Positions 29,489 through 61,418 of a stretch of DNA of 64,000 bases are shown one piece after another. How positions within the stretch are numbered: position 1 is the stretch's first letter; every line of letters begins with the position of its first letter. The position numbers and the translations under genes were made by a program. Below the pieces are notes generated by a model that saw only the letters and a program-made list of their open reading frames with translations, was not told the origin of the DNA and did no database searches. Source of the stretch: Cyanophora paradoxa CCMP329 (Eukaryota; Plantae; Glaucophyta); assembly GCA_004431415.1 (NCBI GenBank), contig QPMI01000084.1, positions 1-64,000 of the forward strand. Direction: 5' to 3'.

Positions 29489-29530
29489 GAGTCCCGAGTC
29501 CCGAGCCCCGAGTCCCGAGTCCCGAGTCCC
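29489..29530 (-). repeat. (GGGACTC)6 heptamer array (duplicate at 33036-33077)
   Basis: GAGTCCC x6, one variant copy. Confidence 0.9.
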
Positions 29531-29664
29531 GACTCGATAACACCGGCGATCGCGACTTCGCGGAGACCCCCCCTTCCGTTTTCCCCGCATAACTTTGGAC
29601 AGGAAGCCGATCTCGGCGCGCTCTCAATTGCTACGTGCTCACAACTTGATTCCGGGCAACTTGA

Positions 29665-33205: not shown

Positions 33206-33447
33206 TGTTGGTGCTAGTTTGACTAGCTAACTCAACCGTGGCAAGAAGTGCAAATTCGCCATAGGCACAAGTGCCCGAAAATCGAGGTGTCCGCTACATT
33301 CTGAGAGCCGGCGCGCGTTCCCATGAGGCTCCACTAGTCATACTTTGCAACCGTGCGCGTATAGAGTAGTTCTACGCTACTACAAAGCGGCGCGGTCTGA
33401 TTCGCAAAGGGCGCGATTTGGCGGCTACGAAAGCACCGCGGCGCCTA

Positions 33448-35965: not shown

Positions 35966-38900
35966 CAGCCGAATGGAAGGCTATGTATGCCGTCGCCTGA
36001 TATGCAGCGCTTGCTATCGAATTGGGTCAGCGCTATCCGCTTGCTCTCCAAATCATATAAGTGGTGGCATCGCCGTTGCTTGTTTACTACTGTTACTGTT
36101 TTTGTGATCCCGTCAAATAGGCAGCGCTTAAAGTCGTCGAAATGCACCTCTTTCGAGGCTGTCCCGCTCATTTTTACCTTGTCGTAGCTCTCGGTGCGGA
36201 AAGCATATAGCTTCGGTCGCAGCCCCACATACTCCACTATCTTGACGTCGGGCATCTCATTTTTATATTTACCGGGAACCATCCGGTTCTCGGGACTATA
36301 AGGGCAATCTAAATAAGGGCTGATCGCTCGCATACCCGCTTCCAGATCCGCGGTCTCTATATACAGACAGAACGAGTCGGTATCGTGGAACAGCAGCTGA
36401 GCTTGCGAGAAAGTCGGTCGGATCACGTCGTAAAAGAAGCTATAATTATGGAGCTTCGCGGCATCCAGCACATAAGCGCCAATCGCAACCGGTTTATCGA
36501 GTTTTACGTGTTTGCTATACATTTCGAATGCGACCGCAGTCTCGTTTAATACATTCGTCGCTTTTACCAGTGGGCTCGCGGCGTATTTCTTAAACAGCTT
36601 CGTGCTATTCGCGATCTTTACCACTGAGCGCCCTCGACACGATTCCAGGCATTTACCGTAAATAGCATTGTTCATTAATTTAAAGAAGTCGCTCTCGAAT
36701 TTATTCCGGGCTTCCTTTCGCAGTTTCGTGTTTAGATCTATATAGGGCTTCATAAATGCAGCGGTTGCAAACGAGAGCACACGGTGGATCTTAGTAACTA
36801 CGATCCCCTTTTTTACCATATAGAGCAGCATCGGCTGAGACACCACGTAATTATATTTCGGAGTAAACGAGGCGATCAGCTTCGGATCTTTACTGAGCTT
36901 CTCGCCGCTAATCTCCAAAAGCCCACGCTGATATTTCCCGAGCATGTCCGCAGTAATTACCTCTTTACTCACGATCAGCGGGAAATCGCGATGGTCGCCC
37001 TTTAAATAGTCCGGATACGCAAGGTCGACCTCTATAAATGCACTCCGCCCTACAACCTCGGTAAAAGCTGTGCTCGTGTCGTCCCAGCGATAGTCCCCGA
37101 CCGGTAAAGGCTGACTTAGCGCATAGCCATATAGATTATTCGCATCCAATAGCACTATATGTTTATCCTCGCTATTAGCATCGGCATATCGTGTGGGCAT
37201 GGTCGCAAAGCCGCCCCTAATCGCCCGCTCAATAAATTCGTATTGATCCGCATCGCTGATCTGTTCTATCGCGACCCTCGTATGCTTTAACATCGCGTCC
37301 CACGATAGTCCCGGTGCGCTCACATAATGCGTCGGATCCAGTCCGTATTGCTCATGTGCGAGCCTATGTAAATTGCATTTTCGGCAAGCTTTCCCTATAT
37401 AATCGCCGCTTTGGTGACAGTGATCGCGCACAGGGAAGTTTTCGTGGGTAAATCGCTGATTGCATATATAGCAGTGTTTGGTGATTTTATAGGCTTGCTT
37501 TTGCGCCTCTGTGAGCGGAATCATAGGTGTATTAGTAAATAGGGTATTAAGCATCTCGCGGCACAGTTCCCCTAACGTGGTAAACATCTGACCCAGCGGA
37601 TCCACGCCCTCGAATTCGTGATTTTCAACATGCGAGCCCATAACTACATTAAGTGCCACCGACTTTACCTCTCGCTTGGTTCGATTTGGTTCATTAGGAA
37701 CCGGCACCGACTCCATCTCTACCTTGCAGTAGCAGACAGTAGGAAGCCACACCATTTTCCTTAGGTGTTGCAGTCCGAAAGTAATAAAGCTTCCGGGCTC
37801 CGGGCATTTACCTTTACTCAGCCGCCAATCGATACAGCGATTAGAGTCGGTGTGGCTATCGAGTTTCTCCTGTGATCTAAACCGGGACAAGCAGGTTTCG
37901 CAGTAGAAAATGCGCCCGTCGTTTGCTTTATCAAAGGTGGTCTTTAATAGGCGGCTCAGTGACATAATCGTAATATAGTGACCCTGTCCGTTTGCGTCCT
38001 CGATCAGCAGCAGGTTTACCTTCGATTTACGACGCGGATTACTTGACATGTGCAGTGGATAAAAGGTTTGGGTCGCATTGTCGGCGCCATATATATTAAT
38101 TGACAGCTCGGGATTATTGTCCTCGAAACGATCTATTAATGCAGCATCGCAAGCCACCGGGAAATTAATGCCTGAGAAGTCCAGCTCAGTCATCCACCGC
38201 CTATATTGGAACGGATCATTACGTTTGTGTCTGTTTATGTCGTTTCTGTGCAGCCATGCGAGGATAGCGTAATTAAAGCAGTCGTGACCATCGATATTCT
38301 TAATATTTACTGTGGCTCGCTTTAATCCAATCCATTCGGGGGTCTCAATGTAGCAACCGCCCATCGGCGCATATGACAAAACGGCGACATGTAGCTTATC
38401 TAATTTACTGAGCCGGTAGCTGTCGACCTGTATCATCTGTTCATTCATTTGCTGAGCTACACCCACTAACTCAGTGAGAATATTGCGCGACCTTGTGATT
38501 ACGAAATAATCGCTGTATATGTGTTTGGTGATAAAAACGTTAGGATCACTCACTTTTACGTATCGGCAGATGAAAGTAAGTCGCACCTTAATAGCTTTCA
38601 GTTCATCCAGCCTTTCTTTCAGCCGCCCAGGCAGATTTGCAGCGATGGTAGTGAGAAATTCCACCGGATCTAAGATTATCTGTTCATCCGCCTTATAGCT
38701 ATACCAGGCGTATGCTTTATTCATTGCGAAACCGTCTTCCTCATCGGGTTCTATGACGGCTAAGCGCCGCCCTTCGGTATAGAAGCGCTCCACATTTTCC
38801 AGGCGATTATAGAGCTCGTCGGCAATATTTGCAAGGTTAGCTAAGCGGGGTTTTCGATCTAAGATCGCCGCCCTCCGATCGTATTCGGCTTCGGTGATCT

Positions 38901-38982
38901 CGCCAGTGACTAAAAGACTACCTAACAAGCCTAATATTTCGTCTTTTTTCTCTTTTATAAGGCGATTAGTTTGGCGGGGCAT
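35962..38982 (-). CDS. Protein-primed family B DNA polymerase (Polinton type), apparently lacking the exonuclease domain
   Basis: DANNLYG, KLMNNAIYGK, FHDTDS, PKLYA; CFNYAILAWLH; C2H2 finger; endonuclease VII-like finger VRDHCHQSG..ACRKCN. Confidence 0.92.
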   Translation of the reverse strand: MPRQTNRLIKEKKDEILGLLGSLLVTGEITEAEYDRRAAILDRKPRLANLANIADELYNRLENVERFYTEGRRLAVIEPDEEDGFAMNKAYAWYSYKADEQIILDPVEFLTTIAANLPGRLKERLDELKAIKVRLTFICRYVKVSDPNVFITKHIYSDYFVITRSRNILTELVGVAQQMNEQMIQVDSYRLSKLDKLHVAVLSYAPMGGCYIETPEWIGLKRATVNIKNIDGHDCFNYAILAWLHRNDINRHKRNDPFQYRRWMTELDFSGINFPVACDAALIDRFEDNNPELSINIYGADNATQTFYPLHMSSNPRRKSKVNLLLIEDANGQGHYITIMSLSRLLKTTFDKANDGRIFYCETCLSRFRSQEKLDSHTDSNRCIDWRLSKGKCPEPGSFITFGLQHLRKMVWLPTVCYCKVEMESVPVPNEPNRTKREVKSVALNVVMGSHVENHEFEGVDPLGQMFTTLGELCREMLNTLFTNTPMIPLTEAQKQAYKITKHCYICNQRFTHENFPVRDHCHQSGDYIGKACRKCNLHRLAHEQYGLDPTHYVSAPGLSWDAMLKHTRVAIEQISDADQYEFIERAIRGGFATMPTRYADANSEDKHIVLLDANNLYGYALSQPLPVGDYRWDDTSTAFTEVVGRSAFIEVDLAYPDYLKGDHRDFPLIVSKEVITADMLGKYQRGLLEISGEKLSKDPKLIASFTPKYNYVVSQPMLLYMVKKGIVVTKIHRVLSFATAAFMKPYIDLNTKLRKEARNKFESDFFKLMNNAIYGKCLESCRGRSVVKIANSTKLFKKYAASPLVKATNVLNETAVAFEMYSKHVKLDKPVAIGAYVLDAAKLHNYSFFYDVIRPTFSQAQLLFHDTDSFCLYIETADLEAGMRAISPYLDCPYSPENRMVPGKYKNEMPDVKIVEYVGLRPKLYAFRTESYDKVKMSGTASKEVHFDDFKRCLFDGITKTVTVVNKQRRCHHLYDLESKRIALTQFDSKRCISGDGIHSLPFGC

Positions 38983-39112
38983 CTTTTACTTTAAGGGAAC
39001 ATTTTTATTTCGGGAAAGGACGCGTTCAAAAATGTGGAAACATATTTAAGGACAACTCAAAAAAATGACACATAGGAAAACATTTTATGTGTATCAGATA
39101 TAGAGAAACACA

Positions 39113-39607
39113 ATGAATACCCAAGAGATAATAGAATATTGTAAGACACTTACAAATATTCCCGTAACAGAAGCAACAAAAGAATGCACAGACAAGAACT
39201 ATCTCAAATGGGAAAAGAAGAATGCGCGTAAGAAGGTAATCTTTGTTATATCACAAACGCGTAAACATCAGGACATGTTTTTACATCTTAATATGGCTTC
39301 CCAGTTTTACCATCCGCATAGGCAGCACATATGCGCATTGGTTTACAAAGGATATAAAATGTTAATACCACTTGACATTACGAAAGAGAAATGCATTGAG
39401 GTAATACAAAATGTTATATCCGGCTATTCTAAAAAACAAGATGGGGAAGTTAAGTGTGTGATTTGTTTAGAGGTTATAGAAACGGAAGATTTAGCTTGTG
39501 CGCAGTGTAATAGTTCTGTGTGTGAATCTTGCATATCCAAAATGACTTATAAACAACGTTTTACCTGTCCAGTTTGTCGTATTGGGAGCTTGCAACAATA
39601 CCATTAA
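39113..39607 (+). CDS. RING-finger protein
   Basis: CVICLE..ACAQCNSSVCESC..CPVCR. Confidence 0.75.
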   Translation: MNTQEIIEYCKTLTNIPVTEATKECTDKNYLKWEKKNARKKVIFVISQTRKHQDMFLHLNMASQFYHPHRQHICALVYKGYKMLIPLDITKEKCIEVIQNVISGYSKKQDGEVKCVICLEVIETEDLACAQCNSSVCESCISKMTYKQRFTCPVCRIGSLQQYH

Positions 39608-39647
39608 TGGCAAGTGCCTAAGTTAGCTTACTGACGTTTTTTGTTTT

Positions 39648-39866
39648 TCGATAGGGTGGGGAGGGTGGGGTGAGGTGGGGCATTTTTTGAGTTCCAATAA
39701 AAAATTCTCCCACCCAAACATTTTGGGCAAAAAAGACCCCACCCAACCCCACCCTCCCCACCCTGTATTAACAACCATGATTTACACTGAAATTCAATGT
39801 GTTTTAAGTTATAAAAATAAGATATATCAATGTTAGAATGAAACCAGGTGGGGTGTAGGGTGGGGT
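39648..39866 (+). repeat. G-tract/C-tract inverted-repeat module immediately 3' of the helicase stop
   Basis: Same module as at 27363-28380. Confidence 0.85.
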
Positions 39867-40794
39867 CAGGCTTCCACATCTGAATCCTCGAATTTGGTGC
39901 CCCTTTTCTTTGGTTGCGGCTGAGGAGAATCATCTTCTTTAATCGAATCATCATCGATAAGCTTCAACTTTCGGAATTCAGACATCATCTCATTCCACAG
40001 GAAGTGATAGTTAGATTTTCCATTGGTCGTTTTCACTTGAATATATGTAGTCGTGCGCATCTCAGTATAGAACCGCTTGCTATTATAATCGTTTTTATAT
40101 TTGTTTTCAGAGATGAAGTCTTTGAACAGCTCCCATGTCGATGCAAGACCGCCCAGCTTGGTTTTCAGCTCTGTAACCCGCTCACTATCGACAAGCCACT
40201 TCGCAAACATAAGAATAATCGGTGCAGCCGCTTGCTGAACTAAGTAGTATCGGTTTGTTAGCGGTCTGTCTTGACTCCAATTGACTTTCTCGCAATTTAC
40301 TTTCGTCCTGAGATACTGAACGATATTTCGAATATTTCTCATATCATTCAGCCACTCAACAAGCGGGGCGAAATAATCCTTATTACAGCGCTGTTTGTCA
40401 CTCACCTCAATGACCACAAAGCGACGATCATCAGCCTCGATCTTGACAGGGACAGTATTGTTGCTTGTGAAAACGATTCGCGCGAAATTCTTCTTATCAT
40501 ACGAGTCTATTCCTTTGTGCTCAATTACAATCTTCGGGGCTGTGACTATATCTTTGAGAAGGTCGCTATGTTCAAAGGTGTCCTTTCCGGAAGCTTCATT
40601 TACAACGATCAGAATCTTATCCTCCCGATTGTGAGCAAACCGCCCGAATAAATCATCCTTTGGCTTGGCTGTCGAGTATGCCAATGCATCACCGAGGATC
40701 TTCTTCTCAAAGGTATCAATGAGCATATTCTTTCCAGCGCCTTGGCGACCTAGGAAGATGAGGGACACGTTATTTAGTTCCCCCGGCTTTTGCA
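39866..40794 (-). pseudogene. SF3 (D5-like) helicase: 3' half of the interrupted primase-helicase gene
   Basis: QKPGE..GRQGAGKN (Walker A), IVVNEA (Walker B), FTSNN, DDRRF. Confidence 0.9.
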
Positions 40795-41198
40795 AGCTCA
40801 GCACTGCGCCGTGTCTCCAAAAAAATACCCGCGAAAAAATCAAAAACAAATCAGAAAACAAACCATTCCCAGTAACCCAATCTTGAATATCAGTAAATCT
40901 CAGTAAGCCTCAGTAAGAAACATTGAATTAATCGAAGTTATATCATAATCTCGATTAATTATATCTTATCGAAGTTATATCTTTTTTATGCGCCGTGTCT
41001 CCAAAACAATTCCCAAGAAAAACAAACCATTCCCAGTAACCCTATTCGTATTCAACAGTAATCTCAGTAAGCCTCAGTAACAAAAATCGAATTAATCGAA
41101 GTTATATCTTAAATCTTATTTATCGAAGTTATATCATAATCTCGATAAATTATATTTAATCGAAGTTATATCCTTTTCATCCGCCGTGTCTCCCATGA
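40795..41198 (+). repeat. Left TIR of element C (404 bp)
   Basis: Reverse complement of 51933-52336; contains three CGCCGTGTCTCC subrepeats and multiple ATCGAAGTTATATC. Confidence 0.95.
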
Positions 41199-41633
41199 AT
41201 AACTAAGTAAGTTTAGTTAAAACCTCGAAAGAAAAACCTCTCATTTTTTACTGTATTTTTTGAACGATTTTTTACTGTATTTGTTACACTAGAAACAACA
41301 ATAGAAACGACAATAAAAACAATAGAATTTTAATTGTTTTTGAATCGTATATACGTCAATATATCACTGTAATATATATCATATATATCATAGGAAATCG
41401 ATTTATAGTCAAACCTATAACATATCAATTTGTGTATATGTGATATATATTCATATATGACGTCATGATGATGATGTATATGTATCTGATATATATGACA
41501 CACCGGCTTATTCGGGAGATCATGACGATCACGGCGATGTGTATATTGTCATGATGTATATGTATATATGTGTGACGCAATCTGATTGGTGTGCTACTTG
41601 TTTTGTTGTATCCCCCTTCAACTTCTCCCCAGG

Positions 41634-41887
41634 TTTATATCACAGATAACATCTCAGATAATACCTCAGATAATACCTCAGATAATACCTCAGATTATAT
41701 CTCAGATAATACCTCAGATTATATCTCAGATAATACCTCATATATTAATTTTAAATTTGCTGGCTTCTGATTGGTTCATGCCACAGAGTAGGGACTTTTC
41801 ATCAAATGCGCCATAAAATGCGCCATAAAATGCGCCATAAAATGCGCCATTAAATGCGCCATTAAATGCGCCATTAAATGCGCCATG
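41634..41887 (+). repeat. Two 12-bp minisatellites: (CAGATAATACCT)~9 and (AAATGCGCCATW)7
   Basis: At 41634-41740 and 41804-41887. Confidence 0.9.
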
Positions 41888-42130
41888 AAAACCCGGGGAA
41901 TAAACCATAGTAGGGTATATGATCTCACGGTTCAAGTTTCGCTCACGTTTCACCGAAATTTCGGTAAATCGATTATCGGCATCTTCAAACGCTTGTATCT
42001 CATCACCAGATTATGATCTCGCAACGTTTTGCATAGCGTTTTGAAGCGCTTGTTAAGCTCTACACAACTACGTAATCATCGTATTATTTCAAGCTACCTT
42101 GTCATACAATATTTCTCACAAATCGTCCTT

Positions 42131-42889
42131 TCACACACTGATTGTGGTCATTTCTCGTTGGATCCGAGCCATCTGACCCCTTTTAATTGCTTTTCTCTTC
42201 ACAAACTTCTTAAAGCCCTTCATATCATCATCTGTTAGTACTGCTCTATCAGTATAGGTCTTGATATCATAACCTTGCAGGCTAGCTATGACAGTTTGGT
42301 AATTATAACCCCATAGTCTATGCAATTCCTTGTAGGTCTTCTTATCCAAACCACCATTGTACTCATCAAAGGCGCAATTGAACTCTTTCTCGTTCCCAAG
42401 AATATTGAAAAATACAACGAACTCCACATTGCGACGAATGGTAGTAGAAATAGAACACAAACGCTGAACATTAAAGATTACCGAGATTGAATAATGTCTT
42501 CCACTCGTTACTAATTTAGATAACACAGCCGAATTATGCATATCCAAATTTGAACCTATCATGTCATCGAGTATGATAACTAGGTTATTTCGCTTTTCGT
42601 TATTCTCAATTCGTTTCTTTTGCATACTGATCAATCTCAAAACAATGTTATCATCCCACTCTTCATAGATGTTATCGGGATGGGTGATGTCATTGAATTG
42701 TCCAGTAAAAGCTGTTGAACTAAATATAACGATTTGATTGATCTTGTCACGAAGCTCGTAAAGTAAGTATTTTGTGAACATTGTCTTACCTGTATTGGAG
42801 CGACCAACATTCAAAATTCTTGTCGGGATTCGAACCGTCTTACTCGGATCGAACTCCGGAATATCATCAAGATTTACTGTGTTATCCAT
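42131..42889 (-). CDS. A32-like genome packaging ATPase
   Basis: GRSNTGKT, LVIILDDM, SGRHYSISVIFNVQ, IRRN. Confidence 0.9.
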   Translation of the reverse strand: MDNTVNLDDIPEFDPSKTVRIPTRILNVGRSNTGKTMFTKYLLYELRDKINQIVIFSSTAFTGQFNDITHPDNIYEEWDDNIVLRLISMQKKRIENNEKRNNLVIILDDMIGSNLDMHNSAVLSKLVTSGRHYSISVIFNVQRLCSISTTIRRNVEFVVFFNILGNEKEFNCAFDEYNGGLDKKTYKELHRLWGYNYQTVIASLQGYDIKTYTDRAVLTDDDMKGFKKFVKRKAIKRGQMARIQREMTTISV

Positions 42890-42969
42890 TACAGTAATAA
42901 GATAAAAAACAAAATAAAGTACACACCTACAAATAATTGCGCTTCCTACACTAACAAAAGAAAAGAACT

Positions 42970-44196
42970 TTAGAAGTTCGAGACTTTCAGGGTAGAGATG
43001 TTGTAGCCATTAAGTACCATAACATTGTGTCGGAGGGCATAGATATCAACCTGAACAGGAGCGGCATCAGTGCATCCGGAAACAGTGAGATCCATGTAAC
43101 TCGAGCTGCTGTTGAAGAAATCCTGGTAACCCATAACCGAGTTCCGAAGCGAATCTTTTCCAGACTTGGAAAGAACAATTCCGTAAACATTTCCAGACTC
43201 GAATCCGTACGTGGTATTGCCCACAGTAACACCCTTGTAGTGAGAAGGAATGTGATTGACAGCAGAGAGGAAACCGGAAATGGGTTTGTTAGATATATCC
43301 AGGGAGCGATTGTTGTGGAAGATCTGGAACTGATCAATCTTAACAGCAGATTCATGACCGCAGAAATCCGAGTGAGTGTAGGTGTTAAGTTTGTTCACCT
43401 CTCGAACAGTCATCAGAATCGAGTGAACCAGACCAGAAACATTAGCGAGTGTAACCTCAACCGATTCACCAGCATCAGCGGTTTTGAGCGCTCGGGTCTT
43501 CTTGTGAATGACCTCTGTGATCGGGATGCGAATGCCACCTTGTTCGTTCGCCATTTTAAGGAGTGTCTCAGCCTCAGCCGAAGCAATGTTTACGAATTGG
43601 CAGATCAGAGAGCAATCCGCAAAGGTTACAGATCCACCAGCCGGAACTTGGACAATCGCAGCATCACGGAAATCAACCTCGATTGTTGGCATATCGGCTA
43701 GCGTACATAATGGGAAATAAGCTTCTTCCCAGAAAGCAGCGGGGATTCTAACGATGTATTCCATTGCTTCATCTGTGCTTTCACGATCTGTCTCTTTGAA
43801 GTAACCGAGAGAAGCATACATGCTGCTCATGGTAGCGTGATCATTATCGACCAGGGCGTTTACAGTGATCCAATCACCAGGGATAATATACTTGAAACCA
43901 CCATGAACGAAACGGACCTCATTAATAAAAGAAGAACCACCATTGGGGAGGGTGCAGGCTACACCACCACCAGTGGCAATCTTGAAATAGAGCGAAACAC
44001 CAGCAAGGAGTTGCTTGCGAGGTAGATCAAAGTAAGCGGTATTCTTGAAGCCAAAAGTGTTGCCCCGGGGACGAACTTGCTCGAGGAATGGTTTGTATTT
44101 GGGGTTGGTTCCGATTTGGAGACCAGGGGAAAGATAAATTTGATCGGAACCGGGAGTTACGAGGAGTTCCTTCAGGGTAGTTCCAGTGAGTGCCAT
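42970..44196 (-). CDS. Double jelly-roll major capsid protein
   Basis: 408 aa, next to the ATPase and penton; colinear homology with 57699-59147 (F.LPR, V/MRIP, GY.D...S.SS, A..HN). Confidence 0.75.
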   Translation of the reverse strand: MALTGTTLKELLVTPGSDQIYLSPGLQIGTNPKYKPFLEQVRPRGNTFGFKNTAYFDLPRKQLLAGVSLYFKIATGGGVACTLPNGGSSFINEVRFVHGGFKYIIPGDWITVNALVDNDHATMSSMYASLGYFKETDRESTDEAMEYIVRIPAAFWEEAYFPLCTLADMPTIEVDFRDAAIVQVPAGGSVTFADCSLICQFVNIASAEAETLLKMANEQGGIRIPITEVIHKKTRALKTADAGESVEVTLANVSGLVHSILMTVREVNKLNTYTHSDFCGHESAVKIDQFQIFHNNRSLDISNKPISGFLSAVNHIPSHYKGVTVGNTTYGFESGNVYGIVLSKSGKDSLRNSVMGYQDFFNSSSSYMDLTVSGCTDAAPVQVDIYALRHNVMVLNGYNISTLKVSNF

Positions 44197-44248
44197 CTCT
44201 TATGTTTAAAATACCAAAAGAAATTTTTAAAATGCTTTATTAAACAGA

Positions 44249-45136
44249 ATGACGCGTTACTATCTCAATATTGATTCCAGGGACCGATCGGATGGAACCC
44301 CAACTAATTTCACATACAGACTCCCTTATGCGATCCAAAAGGTCAGAGCCTGTCGAGTAACGAACTTTGAGATGTTTCACAATCTTTACAACCTCTCTGA
44401 AGTAGGAACCCTCACCACACAAACACTCGATAATGCTGGGAACCCAAAGAATAGAAACAACGAAGTCCTCCGAGGTGCATATACACCGGATTCACTGGTG
44501 AATTATCTGATCGCTCGCATTGGATCCCAGCCCTATAATCAAGCGGGTGGCGGAACTTACACTCGCCATTTCTATGTAACCTATGATCCCACAACATTGC
44601 TTCTAAGGTTCATGTGTGAGGTTCCATTCTCAATCACTATGAACACTCAACTCTTAGCCAATTTCTGTGGTTTTGAAAATGCTAACACACTGTACCAATC
44701 GAGTCCTCTATCATCTAATGTCACAGTTGGAGCCTTTACTTATGCTCACTACATTGATAGTGAAATGCCATTAGATCTACTATTTAATTCCTATTTGCTT
44801 CTTCATGTTGATCCACTGAAAGGAAGATATGTGAGCAATAACAAACGAGATAACAATGCTATCGCGAAAATTGAGATTGACCAAACGGTTGGCAGTCTAT
44901 TAAAATATGATTCATCGAATAATTCCATGATCGTTCACGAGCAGAATGGCTTGGTTGAGGTTGAGACTCTAGATGTGAGACTTTCTTACTGGAATGGAGC
45001 CACAGCAGACATTACTACCGACTGGTCGATGACTCTTGAACTGATTACTGAAGATGATAAAGATCTGACGAAAAAAGCATTGAAGAATGTCATAAAAGAG
45101 TTGGAGGGACTCTACCTGCCGTTCTCACGGTCATAG
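44249..45136 (+). CDS. Minor capsid (penton) protein
   Basis: YLNIDSRDR..FTYRLP N-terminus; LDVRLSYWNG..WSMTLEL C-terminus. Confidence 0.8.
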   Translation: MTRYYLNIDSRDRSDGTPTNFTYRLPYAIQKVRACRVTNFEMFHNLYNLSEVGTLTTQTLDNAGNPKNRNNEVLRGAYTPDSLVNYLIARIGSQPYNQAGGGTYTRHFYVTYDPTTLLLRFMCEVPFSITMNTQLLANFCGFENANTLYQSSPLSSNVTVGAFTYAHYIDSEMPLDLLFNSYLLLHVDPLKGRYVSNNKRDNNAIAKIEIDQTVGSLLKYDSSNNSMIVHEQNGLVEVETLDVRLSYWNGATADITTDWSMTLELITEDDKDLTKKALKNVIKELEGLYLPFSRS

Positions 45137-45172
45137 GAAATACTGTAGAATAAATTTGTTTCAATATTACAA

Positions 45173-45934
45173 ATGGCTCGCAAGACTCAACCCAAGAATT
45201 TCTTAGCCAAACCAGCCGCTGAAGCGGATGTTGGCAATGGTGAGAATGGAAGGAACTGGTATAAGAAATCGAAAGGACTCGCTGCATACGGAACTGGTGA
45301 CCTCGAAAAGGAAGTCCATAAAGAACGAAACCAATTCACCCAAGCCACTACGAAAAACAGTAATGATGATAATGCCCTTGTTGACCAAGTCCCACTGAAC
45401 CGCATGCCCGGAGCCAAACGAGGAATCAAGAAAGGACAGTTCAAATCATCCACAAAGGACAAGGTTGCCTCATCATCGACACTGCTGAAACTGCTTGATG
45501 GTGGTGAGCGACTCTACTCAACCTATTCCGAGAAAGACCATCGCAACCGCTACTTTATTCGTTCAACCACTGGTGGACTGAAATCTGTAACATATCAGTA
45601 TGCTAAGAGTCTTGTTGATGGTATTGCAGCAGAGACCAAAAACGAAAACAAGATCAAGGAACAGCCAATCACAAAGGAAAAGGTTGAGAAGAAACCAGAA
45701 GTAACCCATGAAGTTATTCCCGAACCTGTTCATGTGGCAAAAGACTCACCTACAGAATTGATTGCAAAGACCATTGAGTATCAAGACTCCAACAAAACGG
45801 ATTTGCCGGTTCTCAATAAGTCGATCCTTCGGGTTGCCACTTCGCAGGCTGATCCAGTCAACTCGATTCCAAATGCTGCCCCAATGGTCTCTGGATTCGC
45901 CAAGCTTGGTATAAGACCCGGTTATCGCCGTTAA
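45173..45934 (+). CDS. Hypothetical basic protein (possible core protein)
   Basis: Intact 253-aa K-rich ORF. Confidence 0.65.
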   Translation: MARKTQPKNFLAKPAAEADVGNGENGRNWYKKSKGLAAYGTGDLEKEVHKERNQFTQATTKNSNDDNALVDQVPLNRMPGAKRGIKKGQFKSSTKDKVASSSTLLKLLDGGERLYSTYSEKDHRNRYFIRSTTGGLKSVTYQYAKSLVDGIAAETKNENKIKEQPITKEKVEKKPEVTHEVIPEPVHVAKDSPTELIAKTIEYQDSNKTDLPVLNKSILRVATSQADPVNSIPNAAPMVSGFAKLGIRPGYRR

Positions 45935-46282
45935 GGATCAATCTGAATAATATAATTTCTCAAACATTGTTAGCGCTACGTAACCAATCCTATCCCGTAG
46001 GCTCAAAACTTCTTCATTTTTATGGAGGCGTTGTAGAGCGAAGTGAAATATCCATAGGTAAATCACTTTAATCACCTGTTCTACCGGTTCAGTGGTAGAA
46101 ACTTGCAGCCGACAAGTGAACCTTCTGGGTATCGGTGGCTTTATCATTTTTCCAGCATCTTCTTTCGTACTGGATGCTCTGCAATCGGGACCAAAATTTG
46201 ACAGGAGTTTATTCGCTATATACAGACAGAAAAACTACTTAAAGATTTCTTAACATATATTAAGAGAGTAGAAAAGGACAAC

Positions 46283-46540
46283 ATGCCAATCAGTGAGGCT
46301 CAGAAGCGTGCTACTTATCGTTATCGTAAAACTGAAAAAGGTCAGGAATATTTGAAAAAGTACAATGCCAGATTTGCAAAGCAAATGCGTGACTTATACC
46401 ATACTGATGAGTGTTACAGAGCCATGAAGATCGTTGAGAGTTCCCAGCGTCTCTATGCTTCCAATGCAGTCTGCTTTGTGAAGTATCTCTATGGTGTCCC
46501 GTATTCTAACCGTGGTCGCAAATCGAAATATCTCTGTTAA
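46283..46540 (+). CDS. Small basic, probably DNA-binding, protein
   Basis: SEAQKRATYRYRK..MRDLYHTDECYR; similar to 54244-54474. Confidence 0.6.
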   Translation: MPISEAQKRATYRYRKTEKGQEYLKKYNARFAKQMRDLYHTDECYRAMKIVESSQRLYASNAVCFVKYLYGVPYSNRGRKSKYLC

Positions 46541-46781
46541 TCGTTTTTCTCAGCGCGATCTGCTCTGAGAAACCCGTGGGAAACGCGCTGGAACCACAAA
46601 TATAATCATTCTGTTATTTTTAGAGTTCGATGATCGAGCCAACCCTTTGTTATTTTTATGAATGCCCTCGACTAAATTTATTTTGTTGGAGACTTTTGGT
46701 TTTGTCGGTAAAATTTGACGCGAGTATAAAAGTATTTAAAGAAAACTTTTGTAGGTATATATTAATAGAGTGAACAAAGAA

Positions 46782-49700
46782 ATGCCTCGACCAAGTAATC
46801 GAATTTCGAAAAATTTGCAGGATGAGATTCTTGGCTACTACATGCAAGCAAAAGTAGAAGACAAATTGACCCGAGAGCAGGATATCTATTTCTTGAGAGA
46901 ATTTACTTTCAAAGCAATTAGAATTCCAAAGTTGATTGATATCAGAGATACACTGAGAGGTATCGTAGAGCCTCGTTTGTATCGCAAGCAGGAGAAGAAG
47001 GAGAAGAGGGCTGAGAGAGCCGCTAAGAATGTTGAGAAGCAAAACAAGAAAGCGGAGCAAGCGAGAGAGCGGAAGCGCTTGACTCCTTTCCAGCAGATGA
47101 TTGCTAACCTCCGTGAGTTTGTTGAAAACTCACCTGGAAACATGGTCACCCTGAATGTGAGACTCTTCCGTGAGTTGCAAGAGGGAGAACAAGCCCCTGC
47201 AAATGCAAACAGGGTCACTGAGAATGGTGTGACCTACATTGAATCGAAGAGGCTTCGGAACAATCGCCCCTTTGGTATCCAGTGTACCAAGGCAGCTTTT
47301 CTGAATGCTCTCGGTCTGGTTCAATCCACCTTCAATACGTTCCCATGTGTTGAGGGGACTGTCATTGCTGAATTTATTGCAGCAGTTATTGAGTTTAACT
47401 CGACCAATCAAGATTTCCGCTACCTAAAACTAATTGAGCAAGATACCTACCCCGATATTATGACAATTGAAAGAGTCATCACGACAGATAATGAAGAATA
47501 CATCCCAAGAAATGAACAAGTCCTCAGAGACAATACAAACGCTCCAATGATTATTTCGAATTTCATTAAAAACGAAGGGAACCCCCAAGCCACCACATTC
47601 AAGGAAATGTTCTTGAAAGGTGATTCATTCAAGGTTGGGAAGTGTGTTTTCGATGTCCTCATCAAATGGTTTGGAGGAGCGTTTGAGAAGGCTAAGACCA
47701 AAGGGAAATACAAGCGAATCGATTGGTCTTACAACGGACTCTTTAAGATGGTGAATGGGCGAGACCCTGTTGAAGGAGATGATTGGGGCATTTCTTTCAA
47801 GTCCATTTCGGAGAAGGTTCTTGACCCACTGCGCCTAGGCATGGTTACAATTGGAAAGGACGACAGAACCCCTGTCCCTGAACTGACTTTCCTGCCCAAG
47901 ACCAGGAACACACACTTGACCCCTTCTGTTGCATATGTGAAGATTGAGAATGGTCACATGTATTTGTTAAATCACAATATTAAGGCTCTCACACAGTCCT
48001 TCAATGGCTCCAAGCCAAAAGATACCAATGTTCCACTCAGTTCTCGTTACAAGATTATAAAGCAAAGAAGGTTCAAGGAGTTTGCCACAAATCCCGATGA
48101 CATTCTGAGAATTGTCAGGTCTGACAATCCAAAGAACCAATCGAGCATTCGAATCTGCTATGGTGGTTCACTGGATGAACTACTCAGAGAGTTCATTGTG
48201 GTGCATAATTATCAGGTCCAACCTGGGTTCTCCCAAATCGGAAAGGCAACCCATATTCGTTTCACTATTGACGATAAGGATGTTGTCGTGACCCCACCTG
48301 GTAACGATACAGATGTGGAAACAGCTTTCGAGATTAGCTTCAAGAATGCTGAGTACAGAGATAAATTCGAGAAACTAAATCTGGATATGTATAGGTCTCT
48401 AATCAACACTTCCAACAAGAGTACTTACAATGAGCAAACCATAAATGCATTCAAGAATGGAGTGCAGACTGCCCTTCGTGGTCTCTTTGATGTGGATGAG
48501 GAGACCTTTGATGAAATTCGCTATAACACAGATATTTACGAGTTCGATATGTGCAAAGCATACCCTTACATTGTAGCCTTGATGATCAAATTCGTTCCTG
48601 TTCTCAGCAAGTTCGATGTCTTCAAGAGTGTGACAATCACAGATGCAGAGCAAATCGAGGAATACAGCTTCTATTACGTGAAACTGGACGACAAATACTT
48701 TTTCAAAGCCAAAGACAAGAACGGAAAGGAGTACGAAGCAAACACCTACAACAGATACAAGAGGATGATCATTGATTCCAAGTACAATGTTGTTCCTGGT
48801 TTGGTTCTCAAAAAGCATTTCGAGGATTTCAAGGATGACATCTCCATCAAAGCGGTTCTGCGACCTTACAAACTCATTCCCAACCTTGCAGGCAACACAG
48901 TTGCTCGAATCTTAGATAGCGACCTCGATCCTGTTGATAAGAAGCAGATCTTGGTGAGTGCAATTGGGCAAACTGGAAAGCAACGAAATAGCAGAGTGAA
49001 AACCACCATTTTCCACAACAGAGACGATGCGATCGAGTTCCAGAAACAGAACGGAGGGGAGGTTAAAATTTACCTCTTTGGTGAGACTCTTGCCACTTAT
49101 GAGGAGACAGAGTTCGTTCTGTGTGAGGAAGAGATGACCGAACCCCATATCTACTATGTCAATCAGGTAGCAGAAAAGCAGCTCATTGATGGCTTCATGC
49201 CATTGTACACTACCCTCTTGTCAATTATGAGGATGTGTATGTATGAGAAGTGTGTCGAACTCGCTAAACAGCAGATCCGACCACTCGCTTTGAACACCGA
49301 TTGTGTTTATGGGATCGCTTATGAACCCATTGCCCCAGTGTCATTCGATCGCAATGCCTTTGAGAATATTGGAAAATTCAGTGTGAAATGCTGCCCCAAT
49401 TTTTCTAAAAAGTTTTCAGGTGAGAAGAAAGACCTCGAGGCAAAACGAATTCGTTACGGAAAGTTTGAGAGAGCGACTGACTTTGTGAAAATCGAGAACT
49501 ACAGTTATACCAAACACTCTGTGGTTGATGAGTATGACACAACCGCGATTTGTGATTTGCTGGCTACACAAAAACGATGGGTTCTTCTCGGATCAGTTCC
49601 AGGAGTTGGAAAGACTCACATGACAGTTGAATATGGGAAGCGTTTCAAAAATCCCCTCTATATTGTTCCGACCAACAAGCGAGTGAAGGAAATGAAAGAG

Positions 49701-50870
49701 CAAGGATTGAAAAATGTGAAGACAATCTATGATGCCCTTCATCTCAAAATCGATGAGTCGAACATGGATGAAATCGTAGGAGGGAATGCATCTGGTTTGG
49801 TAGAATTTGATTGCATTGTTATTGATGAGATCTGTCAGTTTAAGATTGGAGAACTGGCAGCCCTGGACCACATCATGAATGAGCAGTTCCCAGATAAGGT
49901 ATACATTGCCACAGGTGACCCGTATCAGAACCCACCCATTCAGGATATGAGTGTTGATCAAGATGAGTATTACCTTGATATCCTCCATCGCCTGTTCCCC
50001 AACGAATTGTTACTCCAAGTGAACAAGCGCCATGAGACTGAGGAAGATCGCAGAAAGGTTGAGCAAATTCGAATTGATTTATTCGAGAAAGGTTTGAGTG
50101 TAAGTGAGGTCCTAGCAAAGTACGGGTTCAAGGTTGTGGACGAATTGGCAAAGACAGATAAAGGCATTGTGTATACAAACCGCAAGGGTGCAGAGGTGAA
50201 CCTAGCCCTTCACAAAATGAACTACGGGGATAATGTTTCCATTTATGCTGGCGGGATCAAAGTTGTTGCAAAGACTCGTATTGCAAAGGGTGGGAAGATA
50301 GTTCATAATGGATTTGTCTACAAGATTGTCAAGCTCTCAAAGGACAGTTTCATTATTGCTGACATTGCCAACAAGAAGGATGAGATTGTTCTCAGCAGGG
50401 ATGCAGTCAAACATTTCGCCCTGGCTTACGCAAACACCTGCCATGTTGTTCAAGGTGATACGATTCGCTGCAAAGGGAACAGGGTAGTCGTGTTCGAAAC
50501 TGGGGCGCCATTTGTTTCAAAGAAGTGGCTATATGTTGCTCTCACTCGAACCACAAGGCTGGATGATGTTGTTATTTACCATGATAATTTCGAAATGGCT
50601 CACTGGAAAGTGTGGAAAAGAGAGAATAACGAGAAGATTTCGACTTACAAGGATCAGGACCGAGCAGCAAACAGACAATTCGATGAGCATGATTACATCA
50701 CATGGGATTGGATCAAGCAGCGATATGGGAAGCAGTATGGGCATTGCCTGCGATGCTACAATGCCATGGACTTTGAAGATATTTCGGTAGATCGAATTAA
50801 TAATGCTGTGGCTCACATTACCAAAAATTGTTTCCTCTCTCATATTAAGTGTAACTGTGCCGCCCAATAA
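46782..50870 (+). CDS. Divergent pPolB - SF1 helicase - HNH-like fusion
   Basis: Pol motifs YEFDMCKAYP, KQILVSAIG, LNTDCVY. SF1 motifs GSVPGVGKT, IVIDE, TGDPYQNPP, YANTCHVVQGDT, LYVALTR. C-terminal CLRC..SVDRINN..H...NC...H..CN. Confidence 0.85.
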   Translation: MPRPSNRISKNLQDEILGYYMQAKVEDKLTREQDIYFLREFTFKAIRIPKLIDIRDTLRGIVEPRLYRKQEKKEKRAERAAKNVEKQNKKAEQARERKRLTPFQQMIANLREFVENSPGNMVTLNVRLFRELQEGEQAPANANRVTENGVTYIESKRLRNNRPFGIQCTKAAFLNALGLVQSTFNTFPCVEGTVIAEFIAAVIEFNSTNQDFRYLKLIEQDTYPDIMTIERVITTDNEEYIPRNEQVLRDNTNAPMIISNFIKNEGNPQATTFKEMFLKGDSFKVGKCVFDVLIKWFGGAFEKAKTKGKYKRIDWSYNGLFKMVNGRDPVEGDDWGISFKSISEKVLDPLRLGMVTIGKDDRTPVPELTFLPKTRNTHLTPSVAYVKIENGHMYLLNHNIKALTQSFNGSKPKDTNVPLSSRYKIIKQRRFKEFATNPDDILRIVRSDNPKNQSSIRICYGGSLDELLREFIVVHNYQVQPGFSQIGKATHIRFTIDDKDVVVTPPGNDTDVETAFEISFKNAEYRDKFEKLNLDMYRSLINTSNKSTYNEQTINAFKNGVQTALRGLFDVDEETFDEIRYNTDIYEFDMCKAYPYIVALMIKFVPVLSKFDVFKSVTITDAEQIEEYSFYYVKLDDKYFFKAKDKNGKEYEANTYNRYKRMIIDSKYNVVPGLVLKKHFEDFKDDISIKAVLRPYKLIPNLAGNTVARILDSDLDPVDKKQILVSAIGQTGKQRNSRVKTTIFHNRDDAIEFQKQNGGEVKIYLFGETLATYEETEFVLCEEEMTEPHIYYVNQVAEKQLIDGFMPLYTTLLSIMRMCMYEKCVELAKQQIRPLALNTDCVYGIAYEPIAPVSFDRNAFENIGKFSVKCCPNFSKKFSGEKKDLEAKRIRYGKFERATDFVKIENYSYTKHSVVDEYDTTAICDLLATQKRWVLLGSVPGVGKTHMTVEYGKRFKNPLYIVPTNKRVKEMKEQGLKNVKTIYDALHLKIDESNMDEIVGGNASGLVEFDCIVIDEICQFKIGELAALDHIMNEQFPDKVYIATGDPYQNPPIQDMSVDQDEYYLDILHRLFPNELLLQVNKRHETEEDRRKVEQIRIDLFEKGLSVSEVLAKYGFKVVDELAKTDKGIVYTNRKGAEVNLALHKMNYGDNVSIYAGGIKVVAKTRIAKGGKIVHNGFVYKIVKLSKDSFIIADIANKKDEIVLSRDAVKHFALAYANTCHVVQGDTIRCKGNRVVVFETGAPFVSKKWLYVALTRTTRLDDVVIYHDNFEMAHWKVWKRENNEKISTYKDQDRAANRQFDEHDYITWDWIKQRYGKQYGHCLRCYNAMDFEDISVDRINNAVAHITKNCFLSHIKCNCAAQ

Positions 50871-51931
50871 TGGATAGTGTATTATCATTCAAAAAGTATA
50901 GGCAGAAACTGATTAATGAAAAAGTGAGTTTTGATGAAAAAGAGTTGAAAAAGAAGTTCAAAAACTCAGAACTCCAGCAAATTTACAAGAAACCAAGGAA
51001 ACCCAAATCGTTTCTTCGCATAGTGGCAAAGCCTAGATCGTTTCAAATCGATATAACATATTTCAGAGGGTTTCAGACTGCCAACAATGGCATTTTCAAA
51101 ATGCTTAGTTTCGTAGACATACTTAGTCGCAAAGGATTTGTTTATCCTTTTAAAAACAGCAGTGAGATCCCGAGCATTTTAAATAGGTTCAAGCAAGAAG
51201 CAGGCAAAGTTAATGCTCTCTCTGGGGATAATGAGTTTTCCCAGGCAGTATACCGAAATTGGTGCAGTGAACATGGTGTAATGCTATACACAGATGTGGC
51301 AAAGGATGACCACATCACAGTAGGAGATAAACTGGGGATAATTGATAGGTTCACTAGGACTTTCAAACAGTATCTCAGAAAATCGATGACAGCAAAGGGA
51401 ACCACGAAATGGATCGATCTACTTAGTGATGTAATTGACTTGTATAATAGCAGTCCCCATTCTGCATTGAAAAATGACTCTCCAAATGCAGTGTATACAA
51501 ATGAAGATAAACAGTTATTTATTTACATGAGGGATACTGTTCACAACAATCGTGTAAAGGAGGCTGATACTAATCAAGTGAAACCAGGAGACACAGTTCG
51601 AGTTTTGCAACCAAAGGGATTGTTTGAAAAAGAAGGTGCGCAATTCAGTCAGAAGGTCTACACTGTTGCAAAGGCTGATAGGAATCGTTTCAAAGTGCTT
51701 GAAGATAATGATGGTGAGGAAACAAAAGAAGTGAAGAGGAGATTTAAGAAACAAGAATTGCAAAAGGTGAATAAAGATGATATCATTAAGATACCATCAC
51801 AAAAACGGATTCAGCAGGTTAATAAAACGAATAAAGTGAATCGATTGGTAGCAAAAGAAGGCATAAAACCCAATCGAAGTAATGTTGTAAGGAGAAGATA
51901 CAATCTGAGAAGTGGTTTAACGAAACGCTAA
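50870..51931 (+). CDS. rve DDE integrase
   Basis: FQIDI, DILSRK, SGDNEF, GIIDRFTRTFK, YNSSPHSAL. Confidence 0.88.
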   Translation: MDSVLSFKKYRQKLINEKVSFDEKELKKKFKNSELQQIYKKPRKPKSFLRIVAKPRSFQIDITYFRGFQTANNGIFKMLSFVDILSRKGFVYPFKNSSEIPSILNRFKQEAGKVNALSGDNEFSQAVYRNWCSEHGVMLYTDVAKDDHITVGDKLGIIDRFTRTFKQYLRKSMTAKGTTKWIDLLSDVIDLYNSSPHSALKNDSPNAVYTNEDKQLFIYMRDTVHNNRVKEADTNQVKPGDTVRVLQPKGLFEKEGAQFSQKVYTVAKADRNRFKVLEDNDGEETKEVKRRFKKQELQKVNKDDIIKIPSQKRIQQVNKTNKVNRLVAKEGIKPNRSNVVRRRYNLRSGLTKR

Positions 51932-51932
51932 A

Positions 51933-52336
51933 TCATGGGAGACACGGCGGATGAAAAGGATATAACTTCGATTAAATATAATTAATCGAGATTATGATAT
52001 AACTTCGATAAATAAGATTTAAGATATAACTTCGATTAATTCGATTTTTGTTACTGAGGCTTACTGAGATTTAGTGAGATTTGGAATTGGGTTACTGTGA
52101 ATGGTTTGTTTTTCTTGGGAATTGTTTTGGAGACACGGCGCATAAAAAAGATATAACTTCGATAAGATATAATTAATCGAGATTATGATATAACTTCGAT
52201 TAATTCAATGTTTCTTACTGAGGCTTACTGAGATTTACTGATATTCAAGATTGGGTTACTGGGAATGGTTTGTTTTCTGATTTGTTTTTGATTTTTTCGC
52301 GGGTATTTTTTTGGAGACACGGCGCAGTGCTGAGCT
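51933..52336 (-). repeat. Right TIR of element C
   Basis: Ends ...GGAGACACGGCGCAGTGCTGAGCT, followed by TSD TTGCA. Confidence 0.95.
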
Positions 52337-54033
52337 TTGCATCATGTGGGCAAACCACTTTTTAAGATAATCGAATGTCTTATCATCTTCGCCTGACATT
52401 AAATATAGATGTGTCAGAAAAGGCTGAATCATCTCTTCTGTCACATCCTCGGGGGGCGGCTCCTCGAATTCTTCATGATCAATCTTGAATCCAGGGTAGA
52501 GATTAAACACAGACTTGCATTTCGCGCTCAGCTTTGCAGGAGGCGGCAGGAAATCCATATAAGTGGATCGTGTCGCCCTTGGGTCAGTAATCCATTCAGG
52601 TAGCGTTTTTACCCACTTTTCGGTTTGGTTCTCAGTCCCCTCATTGAGAATCACCTTGTGAAACAGATGGGGAAAATGTTTGGTCGCCAATTTCGTAATA
52701 TCTTTCGGTCGCCAGGATAATAGCTGTTCATCCCAATACATGACAGTGCCGATGCTCTCGATGTGATGCAGCCTCGCATTTAAATATCGCAGATGGACTT
52801 CAAAGCTATCGACCATAGGTGGAATGGGGGCAGTCTTGTAGTCAATATCGTCGGAATCCTCAGGCTGAAACGAATATTTCTTGGGAATAGCTTATTATAA
52901 CTGTCGCTGTTATCCTTTTTCAGCCAGTAAACAATCGAACCGAATGTGACTCGCTTCCCTTCCACCATTTTCTTGCCTTTGCAAAGGCTCATGAACTTCT
53001 CATGACAGTCATCATATTCATATTTTTCGCTTTTCTCCGAGAACTTATGAAATAGCTCTACTTGTTGCTTGCGAGGGATATTGTTGTCTTCGCAAGTATT
53101 GATTATAGCAATACCTACGTCGATCCATGTCTTATATTCATTAGCTCGCTCGCCACTGAGGCTCATAATGACTTCTTGCAACAGTTCAAACGAAACCTTA
53201 TTATCTTTGAGATCCTCCAACACCTCCTCCTTCTTCTTCACAGGTTCTTTACAGGGCTTGTCCTTAACAGACTTGGGCGCCACCGTTTGCTTAGGTTCCT
53301 CAGGCTTTGTAGCTTCCTTTGGTTTATCGACCGCAAAGGCTGACATGGTGTCTACTTCCACCCACTTAGTGGGGCGATCGAAACATTGCACCAGGAAAAA
53401 ACCATCGTGCATGCCTTCTTTCTCGCAATCAATAAACTTAGTGAACACCACATTCTTATCGACATCGTGCTTTGATTTGCTTTGAGCGTCCAAAGCTTCG
53501 CCTTTGCAGCAACGGAGGCAGATCAGGTTTTGAGTTGTTCCATAAACGCCACTATCGAATTCGACATTTTTGATGAGACCCATCGCTTTAAAAAGCTTTG
53601 GAATGTCTTCGTGGCGGCAGACCAGATCGGTAAATACGAAATGCCCGGAAATCTTGAACTTAGTGACATTCTCTTTGATTAAATGAACCCGGCGATGGCG
53701 AACAGCAACCGCAATTGTAGATCCCGACAGGGTTTGCAATTTCTTGCGCATTTCCCTGATGATCTCTTCGGCTTCCTTATAGTTGTCGGCTACATCAGGT
53801 TTCAGATCAACGAACTTGTCCAGATCCAGATAAACACGAGTCACTTGATCAGGTTGTATGCATTCCGCCCATGTAGGATAGGTCATATTGTCCCGTTTCT
53901 TTGAGTTATTGATGCGCTCAATAATTTCATCATCGGTTAACTCAACCAAATTGGACTTATTGCGTGCACCTTGCAGACATTTCAGAAAGGTGCCCTTGAC
54001 ATTAGAGAATGCGAATTTCGTGATAGCGTCCAT
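52337..54033 (-). pseudogene. AEP primase + PriCT-2: 5' part of the interrupted primase-helicase gene (also a -1 shift in the G-run at 52883-52885)
   Basis: YLDLD, ISGH, DSGVY; EYKTWIDVGIAI..FHKFSEKSEKY; FNLYPGF; KKWFAHMMQ. Confidence 0.9.
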
Positions 54034-54243
54034 CTTCTCTGTTTTACTCTAAGCGGAGAAAATATTTTTCAGGTTGTTCATTTTTTGCGCATTATCCTTA
54101 AATCCCTTTACAGTTTTTTCCCGATGATAAAATCGATTAGCATCGGGGCAATCGATAGTATGGTAAGGAGCTTCCCGATTTACATCGGAAAGCCGCACGA
54201 AAAATAAGGAATGCGCTCAGCGGCAATCGAGAGTTTGCGTTTT

Positions 54244-54474
54244 CTAATACTTACGGGGGCGCCCCCGCTTTCCCATATGGCTTCCCTCCTCGGCTTTGCG
54301 ACGATAATACGATTCCAAAGCCATCTTCTTCTTGAATTCGCGATATTCGGGATCCTCGTTATACCGATTCCGCATTTTGATGATTTCACGGATCCGATAA
54401 TTAAGTCCGTCGCCTTTCTTCATGTCCTCAGTGACAAGCTTTGCCTCAATATTTACAGCAGCGATGGTGGTCAT
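54244..54474 (-). CDS. Small basic protein with C-terminal AT-hook
   Basis: MRNRYNEDPEYREFKK..KRGRPRKY. Confidence 0.65.
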   Translation of the reverse strand: MTTIAAVNIEAKLVTEDMKKGDGLNYRIREIIKMRNRYNEDPEYREFKKKMALESYYRRKAEEGSHMGKRGRPRKY

Positions 54475-54691
54475 CTTTTCGTTCCTTACTATAAGCGGAG
54501 AAAATATTTTATCAGTCGTATTTCCTATTTCTTCTTTAAATCATTTTCTGAGCTGTCATTTTTTGTGATCGAAGCGAGTTCTTCTCTACGTTTTTTAATA
54601 GCGACTTCCAATGCGTATTGCGCGCGTTTCCTGTATAGGATCGCGTAGAGATCGGGTCGGGCATTCGATACTATTTAACGCGAAAATAGTT

Positions 54692-55933: not shown

Positions 55934-56845
55934 TCAAAATTTACCCAATTTCTTTGCAAATTTTGGGCGGCGCTTTTCTTGGTATGCCAGCAATAGATTG
56001 GGGTCTTTAAGTAGGTCGGCTTCGATTATTCTTTTGGTGGATCGCTTTAAGGTGGCGACGTTTCCACTCACAGGTTTCGTTATATCGGTGGTTTGGGGTT
56101 GGTCGCCATTTACCTCTGTGGAGCTCTGTTTTACCGGCTGTTTACCAGCGGGCTTTATCTCTTCCACCGCTTTTTTAAAGAACCGCTTGAATTTATATTC
56201 GTCAGGCACCGGATCAGCCTTGCCCACAGAGAATTCCAGGCTATATTTCGAGTTGTCAATGCAGATAACCTGATAGCTGTGACTGTATTCGTTCATCACC
56301 TTCTCAAACCAATGCTTTTCGTATGGATTAAACTCGTCCTCAGCACTCTCCATCTCTTTTCTGTTGGGCAGCGAGAATAGAAAGATATATTCGGAGTTAA
56401 CCCTAAGTGTCGGCGAAATCTTAGTGAGTTTTTGTGACAGAATCCACACAGATATGAATAAATGGCGCCCCGACGTGAATAGCTGATTTAATATAGGTTC
56501 ACCTCTTCCTGACATCGAAAGACTTGGATTGTCAATGAAATCATCGAGTATGATTAACAGGTTACCGACTTTCTCCTTTTTCTTGATTCGCTCCTTGCGT
56601 TTCTGTATTATATTGTCGATCAGCTTATGATCGAAATCCTCATACAAATACGATGTGACATTGTCATATTGATGGTTCCAGATCGTGGAAGCGAATATCA
56701 TCACCGAATCTATCTTGTCCTCGTTGTGGTAAAGCAGGTATTTTAAGAATACTGACTTACCTACTCCCGTTTTTCCGACAGCAAGTAAACGGCAAGGGAA
56801 TGAAAGACTTGCCGGGTCAAACTCATTCAGATCTTGTATATCCAT
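55934..56845 (-). CDS. A32-like genome packaging ATPase
   Basis: GKTGVGKS, LLIILDD, SGRHLFISVWILSQ, LRVN. Confidence 0.9.
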   Translation of the reverse strand: MDIQDLNEFDPASLSFPCRLLAVGKTGVGKSVFLKYLLYHNEDKIDSVMIFASTIWNHQYDNVTSYLYEDFDHKLIDNIIQKRKERIKKKEKVGNLLIILDDFIDNPSLSMSGRGEPILNQLFTSGRHLFISVWILSQKLTKISPTLRVNSEYIFLFSLPNRKEMESAEDEFNPYEKHWFEKVMNEYSHSYQVICIDNSKYSLEFSVGKADPVPDEYKFKRFFKKAVEEIKPAGKQPVKQSSTEVNGDQPQTTDITKPVSGNVATLKRSTKRIIEADLLKDPNLLLAYQEKRRPKFAKKLGKF

Positions 56846-60465: not shown

Positions 60466-60492
60466 TTTATTCTTTATTAATAGGAAATAAAA

Positions 60493-61400: not shown

Positions 61401-61418
61401 AATAATCTTATATTACAA

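Follow-up and report, generated by a model that had tools for sequence, protein, structure and literature searches.

Nested elements at the locus

The stretch of DNA analysed here, positions 1 to 64,000 of contig QPMI01000084.1 from Cyanophora paradoxa CCMP329 (64,000 nt; the window), carries a polinton-like virus (PLV), element C, that occupies 40795-52336 (11,542 bp) and splits the primase–helicase gene in one copy of element B, a larger PLV (Table 1). As an earlier note on this DNA had proposed, C ends in 404-bp terminal inverted repeats (TIRs) and is flanked by a TTGCA target-site duplication (TSD), both of which we confirmed; a 5-nt match placed exactly at the TIR ends would arise by chance about once in 1000. 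The two TIRs differ at 12 of 404 positions, 11 of them clustered in a 27-bp patch (TIR positions 239-265) and one at position 353, and are identical over positions 1-238. The target site itself forms no hairpin (z 0.42). The left non-coding region of C contains two 12-bp tandem arrays at 41623-41890, and variant forms across 41538-41976 occur in contigs.

Table 1 Features of elements B and C, in order along the window
Feature	Coordinates	Strand	Remarks
B rve integrase, 480 aa	33448..34890	-	
B pPolB, 1006 aa	35962..38982	-	Pfam DNA_pol_B_2 E 2e-11; exonuclease region short by about 200 aa in this copy
B primase–helicase, 3′ part (SF3 ATPase)	39866..40794	-	15-21 residues separate the junction from Walker A, which precedes the first ATG
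Left TSD, TTGCA	40790..40794	+	present once in empty-site contigs
C left TIR, 404 bp	40795..41198	+	internal sub-repeats
C packaging ATPase, A32-like, 252 aa	42131..42889	-	Pfam Pox_A32 E 7e-16
C major capsid protein (MCP), double jelly roll, 408 aa	42970..44196	-	model pLDDT 69; Foldseek to PBCV-1 capsid E 2e-19
C likely penton or minor capsid protein, 295 aa	44249..45136	+	24% to the B open reading frame (ORF) at 60493, E 5e-7; putative label
C ORF, 253 aa	45173..45934	+	without family match
C basic ORF, 85 aa	46283..46540	+	without family match
C pPolB–SF1 helicase fusion, 1362 aa	46782..50870	+	likely vOTU Cys/His, PolB motifs A and C, SF1B helicase, HNH-like tail
C rve (DDE) integrase, 353 aa	50870..51931	+	stops 2 bp short of the right TIR
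C right TIR, 404 bp	51933..52336	-	
Right TSD, TTGCA	52337..52341	+	
B primase–helicase, 5′ part (likely AEP, PriCT-2, linker)	52337..54033	-	frame shifted by one base at about 52882, a change confined to the window
B packaging ATPase	55934..56845	-	Pox_A32 E 9e-11
B MCP, 482 aa	57699..59147	-	homologous to C MCP, E 1e-12; in MCP tree

The minus-strand gene of B resumes in frame across C. When the pieces are translated separately, the upstream one ends ...KKWFAHMMQ at the right-hand TSD and the downstream one reads QKPGELNNVSLIFLGRQGAGK from the left-hand TSD, with the break 15 codons before the Walker A motif. Pieces of 383, 181 and 307 codons fit a protein of about 873 aa. Profile searches matched PriCT_2 in the 5′ piece (E 2.9e-13) and the SF3-type DUF5906 in the 3′ piece (E 1.5e-15) and returned no match for an AEP catalytic domain, which is likely present in the 5′ piece to judge from sequence motifs. 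A word-seeded search found no longer homologue of the 5′ piece, which counts as weak evidence.

An uninterrupted gene in the B family

Twenty of the 24 listed sequencing runs of one organism contain half or more of the words present in 36600-46500, and we compared the contigs of four of these 20 runs, from four studies (one run has no named study), with the window. In all four, a joint leads from 40788 to 52336 and skips C, with six letters that fit either side, as in an empty site. The empty-site contig of run X1 (1170 nt) differs from the window by no substitution and by a single gap (about 52882), a base at which every one of the four runs departs from the window at full depth. The frame change at this position either belongs to the window alone or reflects an assembly error; homopolymer indels are frequent in the assembly (of 14 indels between two 3.5-kb copies, 11 are in runs of at least three), some of them possibly real differences. 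The depth of the empty site equals that of the neighbouring primase DNA (230 in X1, 662 in X2 and 1128 in X6), and we rejected excision products as a source of these contigs, their depth being that of the whole primase region. Because empty-site contigs are present in all four runs, the primase–helicase gene is intact in the B family. The earlier note had held that removing C plus one TSD copy would rebuild an approximately 873-aa primase–helicase frame and had proposed a search for empty-site copies of B; the piecewise translation and the uninterrupted gene in these contigs agree with the rebuilt frame.

Gene content and class of C

As a small but complete PLV, C has a Tlr1-type gene set, in which the short TSD, TIRs and rve integrase known from Tlr1-type PLVs are all present. 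Its replicase has as best named match the S1H protein of the Trichoplax MELD virus (E 1.5e-61, 27% identity over 79%; 7 hits). In a structural model covering residues 241-1362 (mean pLDDT 66, pTM 0.37), model residues ~190-640 match phi29 polymerase (E 3.4e-9; Z 12.4, rmsd 7.1, 337 aligned) and model residues ~655-1030 match Pif1/RecD2 helicases (Z 16.9, rmsd 5.0, 308 aligned); PolB motifs A and C, inspected by eye, retain the catalytic aspartates. Comparing a profile of the C replicase alignment with B pPolB gave no match, and the polymerase call thus rests on fold and motifs, which support the suggestion that C brings its own polymerase–helicase. This fusion to an SF1 helicase, in place of a stand-alone pPolB, rules out a canonical Polinton/Maverick.

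The C integrase matches Pfam rve_3 at E 0.003, which falls short of the cut-off, and an integrase-like stretch in locus L007 at E 7e-19. No Pfam or PHROG match was obtained for the likely penton, which resembles B ORFs weakly; Pfam searches revealed no maturation protease in C, and the 253-aa and 85-aa ORFs are without assignment. Metagenome and viral contigs yielded no exact match to the C TIR end, viral contigs no locus for the C replicase, and word-seeded searches no homologue of the C MCP. The capsid half of C (41900-46560) has about 1.3-2 times the depth of the replicase–integrase half, with variant joints near 46274-46603, and there may be a sister subfamily of C that shares its capsid module and has a different replicase.

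Element B and its surroundings

B encodes a Polinton-type pPolB from which the ExoII–ExoIII region is gone in frame (break near 37363) and whose ExoI motif is degenerate; against relatives from all eight loci compared, one of them partial in this region, the gap amounts to about 200 aa. In each of the four runs, aligned pieces end at the break, and one contig continues with different letters; judging from these contigs, the exonuclease deletion may be private to this B copy, with other copies of the family having extra sequence there. The combination of a lost exonuclease and a separate SF3 helicase is reminiscent of mavirus (PMC11161782). Among the 40 of 427 variant sites shown, every one of the 24 in B pPolB and of the eight in the SF3 piece is a third codon position, which suggests that the B family is under purifying selection.

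In all four runs, B pPolB is covered 1.9-2.5 times as deeply as the primase; the primase module therefore likely accompanies only about half of B-type polymerases. The same half depth extends, in all four runs, over a block of RING, primase–helicase and 76-aa ORF (~39000-40790 and 52341-54550), which suggests an accessory or swappable second replicase module. Since B also has its own pPolB, C did not take away its sole replicase.

Several further features surround these genes. A 220-bp GGGTGGGG palindrome at 39647-39866, at the 3′ end of the B primase–helicase (DNA hairpin z -4.1), recurs three times per unit of a tandem duplicate at 26123-33214 and is possibly an origin or terminal repeat of B. 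The 3.55-kb units of this duplicate are 99.5% identical and adjoin the integrase end of B, and the duplicate has a 24-nt motif in common with C (at 41986). Upstream of four B genes (35575, 54053, 54495 and 59166, minus strand) lies a common motif, a candidate promoter chosen post hoc, that is absent from C. An HNH-AP2 endonuclease gene (56905-57624, minus strand) sits between the B MCP and ATPase, and the right arm of B (59300-64000), with penton-like and fibre-like frames, is split into many short frames by assembly indels or decay. Two intron-rich host genes lie further out, one for a phosphatidylinositol transfer protein (17129-18304, minus strand; Pfam match) and one apparently patatin-like by its motifs (19200-21730, plus strand).

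Kinship between C and B

As the earlier note had stated, the MCP, penton-like protein and ATPase of C are homologous to those of B, with identities of 24-26%, 24% (over 165 aa) and 35%, respectively; the integrases share 25% (E 7e-17). A seven-row MCP tree, from which a 214-aa fragment (P0012) was left out, groups the B MCP at 100/99 with P0008 (40% identity) and P0009 and places the C MCP outside, its own position being weakly supported. The two MCPs are thus not sister lineages in the tree that the earlier note had called for. Only six representatives of this MCP lineage occur among 1.84 billion proteins, the closest relative being annotated from the glaucophyte Cyanophora paradoxa, a species for which polinton-like genes are mentioned in PMC8502044. 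At the nucleotide level C and B share nothing except one 44-bp stretch common to C and the nearby tandem repeat, and the C TIR does not match the part of B present in the window.

Cross-packaging of C and B, which had been thought possible through common capsid ancestry, is unlikely: the two MCPs share 26% identity without being sister lineages, and C has its own morphogenesis genes. Nor does C look like a capsid-borrowing satellite, as it encodes an MCP, an ATPase and a likely penton. The further idea that excision of C acts as a switch for B finds no footing here. Excision-controlled gene switches of the skin-element kind involve a site-specific Tyr/Ser recombinase and the sole functional copy of a gene. 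In C, the only integration gene found is of the rve type, with a 5-bp TSD and no site-specific Tyr/Ser recombinase found, and the intact empty-site allele is present in all four runs; on these grounds such a switch is not supported. An rve insertion is not known to reverse precisely, and a footprint that kept both TSD copies would shift the frame by 5.

Copy numbers and flanks of C

Contig depth is not true copy number, and the estimates drawn from it are rough. In X1, single-flank contigs have depths of 19-21, compared with 800 for the C TIR end, 446 for the C replicase and 230 for the B primase; from these depths we obtain roughly 20 copies of C and 11 intact copies of the B primase. Insertion at TTGCA places an A outside the TIR at both ends. 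In X1 this base is A for 140 of 609 units of depth (~23%), two other letters (C and G by elimination) for 215 and 235, and T for 19; in X2 it is A for 415 of 2529 (16%). These figures cover eight of 11 C-end flank records (X1) and eight of 12 (X2). Because the bases flanking C ends are diverse, the claim that C targets this site is largely refuted. Two other C flanks were tested, and neither is in the window.

The proposed knock-out of the B primase–helicase needs to be divided: in this copy the gene is interrupted, but consequences for the B family do not follow, given the approximately 11 intact copies and the roughly half of pPolB depth that lacks the module.

Origin of the nest

We consider it probable that C is a complete 11.5-kb Tlr1-type PLV that entered the primase–helicase gene of one B copy by an ordinary, untargeted rve insertion, disabling the gene of that copy only. 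The nested insertion is likely recent. Linear C DNA would be copied by its own protein-primed PolB–SF1 helicase, as the predicted fold suggests, and the C rve integrase would then insert the TIR ends at a staggered break in the target, giving rise to the 5-bp duplication that is observed. With the cut lying ahead of the Walker A motif, neither piece of the B gene would be a working primase–helicase. The insertion may persist because a hit on one of many redundant viral copies would cost the host nothing, and the intact B genes could complement in trans. The nest is likely without consequence beyond one B copy.

Some observations weigh against an untargeted insertion or against the nest itself. 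A further C-like end, which lacks 7 bp, lies next to a single-depth 14-kb contig that is AT-rich and could be another viral element. If genome sizes of 70-130 Mb are assumed, C would strike B-family DNA at random once or more with a probability of 3-21%, before allowing for any choice of this window for its nest, so that such a hit is not the expected outcome for this pair; it is unremarkable given many families and the choice of window. Moreover, neither X1 nor X2 has a contig that joins B to C, and the nest accordingly rests on the window assembly. Flank contigs number only two in X1 and three in X2, against about 40 ends, so the missing bridge says little.

The second C-like end and the low chance for this pair, together with the nest itself, are also what a preference of C for other endogenous PLVs, or for AT-richer silenced viral DNA as a class, would produce. 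Such a safe-harbour or antagonistic preference would need no fixed target sequence and has precedents in the enrichment of Ngaro in EMALEs (PMC8547959) and in the frequent nests of Halocafeteria (10.64898/2026.07.28.741278). However, about three-quarters of the C-end depth in X1 lies next to C or G, which fits the GC-rich host (62% in the host flank, with many short introns) better than viral DNA (44-45%), and the one full-length C flank, absent from the window, has 57% GC. We therefore regard a class preference as unlikely. Equally doubtful is the wider proposal that C-family viruses prefer integrating into other endogenous PLVs, their nests disabling rival replication genes and placing a replicase–integrase module beside a foreign capsid module as an intermediate of virus–virus competition and replicase swapping.

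A chimeric assembly of two multi-copy elements would account for the absence of a bridging contig and would be in keeping with the indel errors described above. We judge it improbable, as the 5 bp of the empty site are duplicated exactly at the two TIR ends, no common sequence could have seed­ed a misjoin, and short-read contigs lose most flank junctions. Very improbable, in our estimate, is the reading put forward in the earlier note, in which C is a dedicated hyperparasite or competitor of B that targets the primase–helicase site, can use the B capsid and switches B on by excision. The insertion does hit a replication gene, the MCP, ATPase, penton-like protein and integrase are homologous, and precise removal of C would reopen the B frame. 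Against this stand the diverse C flanks and the approximately 11 intact B genes, MCPs that are 26% identical with that of C outside the B group, nucleotide similarity limited to the 44-bp stretch, and the post hoc upstream motif found four times in B and not at all in C; an rve-type integrase in place of a Tyr/Ser recombinase and the frame-shifting two-TSD footprint likewise argue against a switch. An untargeted insertion into one B copy thus remains our preferred explanation.

Comparison with known systems

The locus offers a clean case of a PLV within a PLV with an empty-site control. It adds a very small complete pPolB-S1H virus, and both elements belong to a sparsely sampled capsid lineage. 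We found no description of this locus in the literature searched, figures and preprint supplements being outside that search, and the passages of PMC10120064 contain nothing on nesting. PLVs nested in viral elements are already known: in Halocafeteria seosinensis, five PLVs and nine virophages are embedded in other viral elements (10.64898/2026.07.28.741278). In the excerpts of that work, however, replication genes are broken by transposons, and a PLV splitting a PLV primase–helicase with an empty-site control is not described.

C resembles Tlr1-type PLVs such as Tlr1 of Tetrahymena (PMC5499653, PMC11161782) in its MCP, likely minor capsid protein, packaging ATPase, rve integrase, pPolB–SF1 fusion with an endonuclease-like tail, absence of a detected protease and multiple copies. 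It differs in size, 11.5 kb compared with the 14-40 kb given for PLVs (PMC12220804), and in its replicase tail, which looks HNH-like rather than being the GIY-YIG of Tlr1 (PMC12721341). The pPolB-S1H architecture is predicted to be an active polymerase (PMC11161782, PMC12721341, PMC13215967). The closest named relative of the C replicase, S1H of the Trichoplax MELD virus (PMC8502044), is distant.

Insertions of EMALEs by rve integrases show no sequence specificity and leave 3-5-bp TSDs (PMC8547959). Ngaro retrotransposons in the EMALEs of Cafeteria are likewise nested parasites in an endogenous virus (PMC8547959), and retrotransposons disrupt PLV genes in cryptophytes (PMC12220804, PMC12747079). 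The Ngaro invader is, however, a retrotransposon with demonstrated enrichment, whereas C is a capsid-encoding virus and enrichment is not among our results. If C insertions were enriched in other PLVs, this would amount to direct genomic antagonism between endogenous viruses, which is absent from the passages on related systems.

With its pPolB and AEP–SF3, B is like the multi-replicase polisuviruses, in which tandem elements and second replicases have been proposed as a route to mosaicism and module swapping (10.64898/2026.10.13.758929). The host appears to carry the modules at differing copy numbers, each at about 10-40, which would make it a test bed for the proposed accretion–deletion route of replicase swapping. 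The excerpted polisuvirus text concerns tandem integration and second replicases, whereas C is an insertion within a replicase gene (10.64898/2026.10.13.758929).

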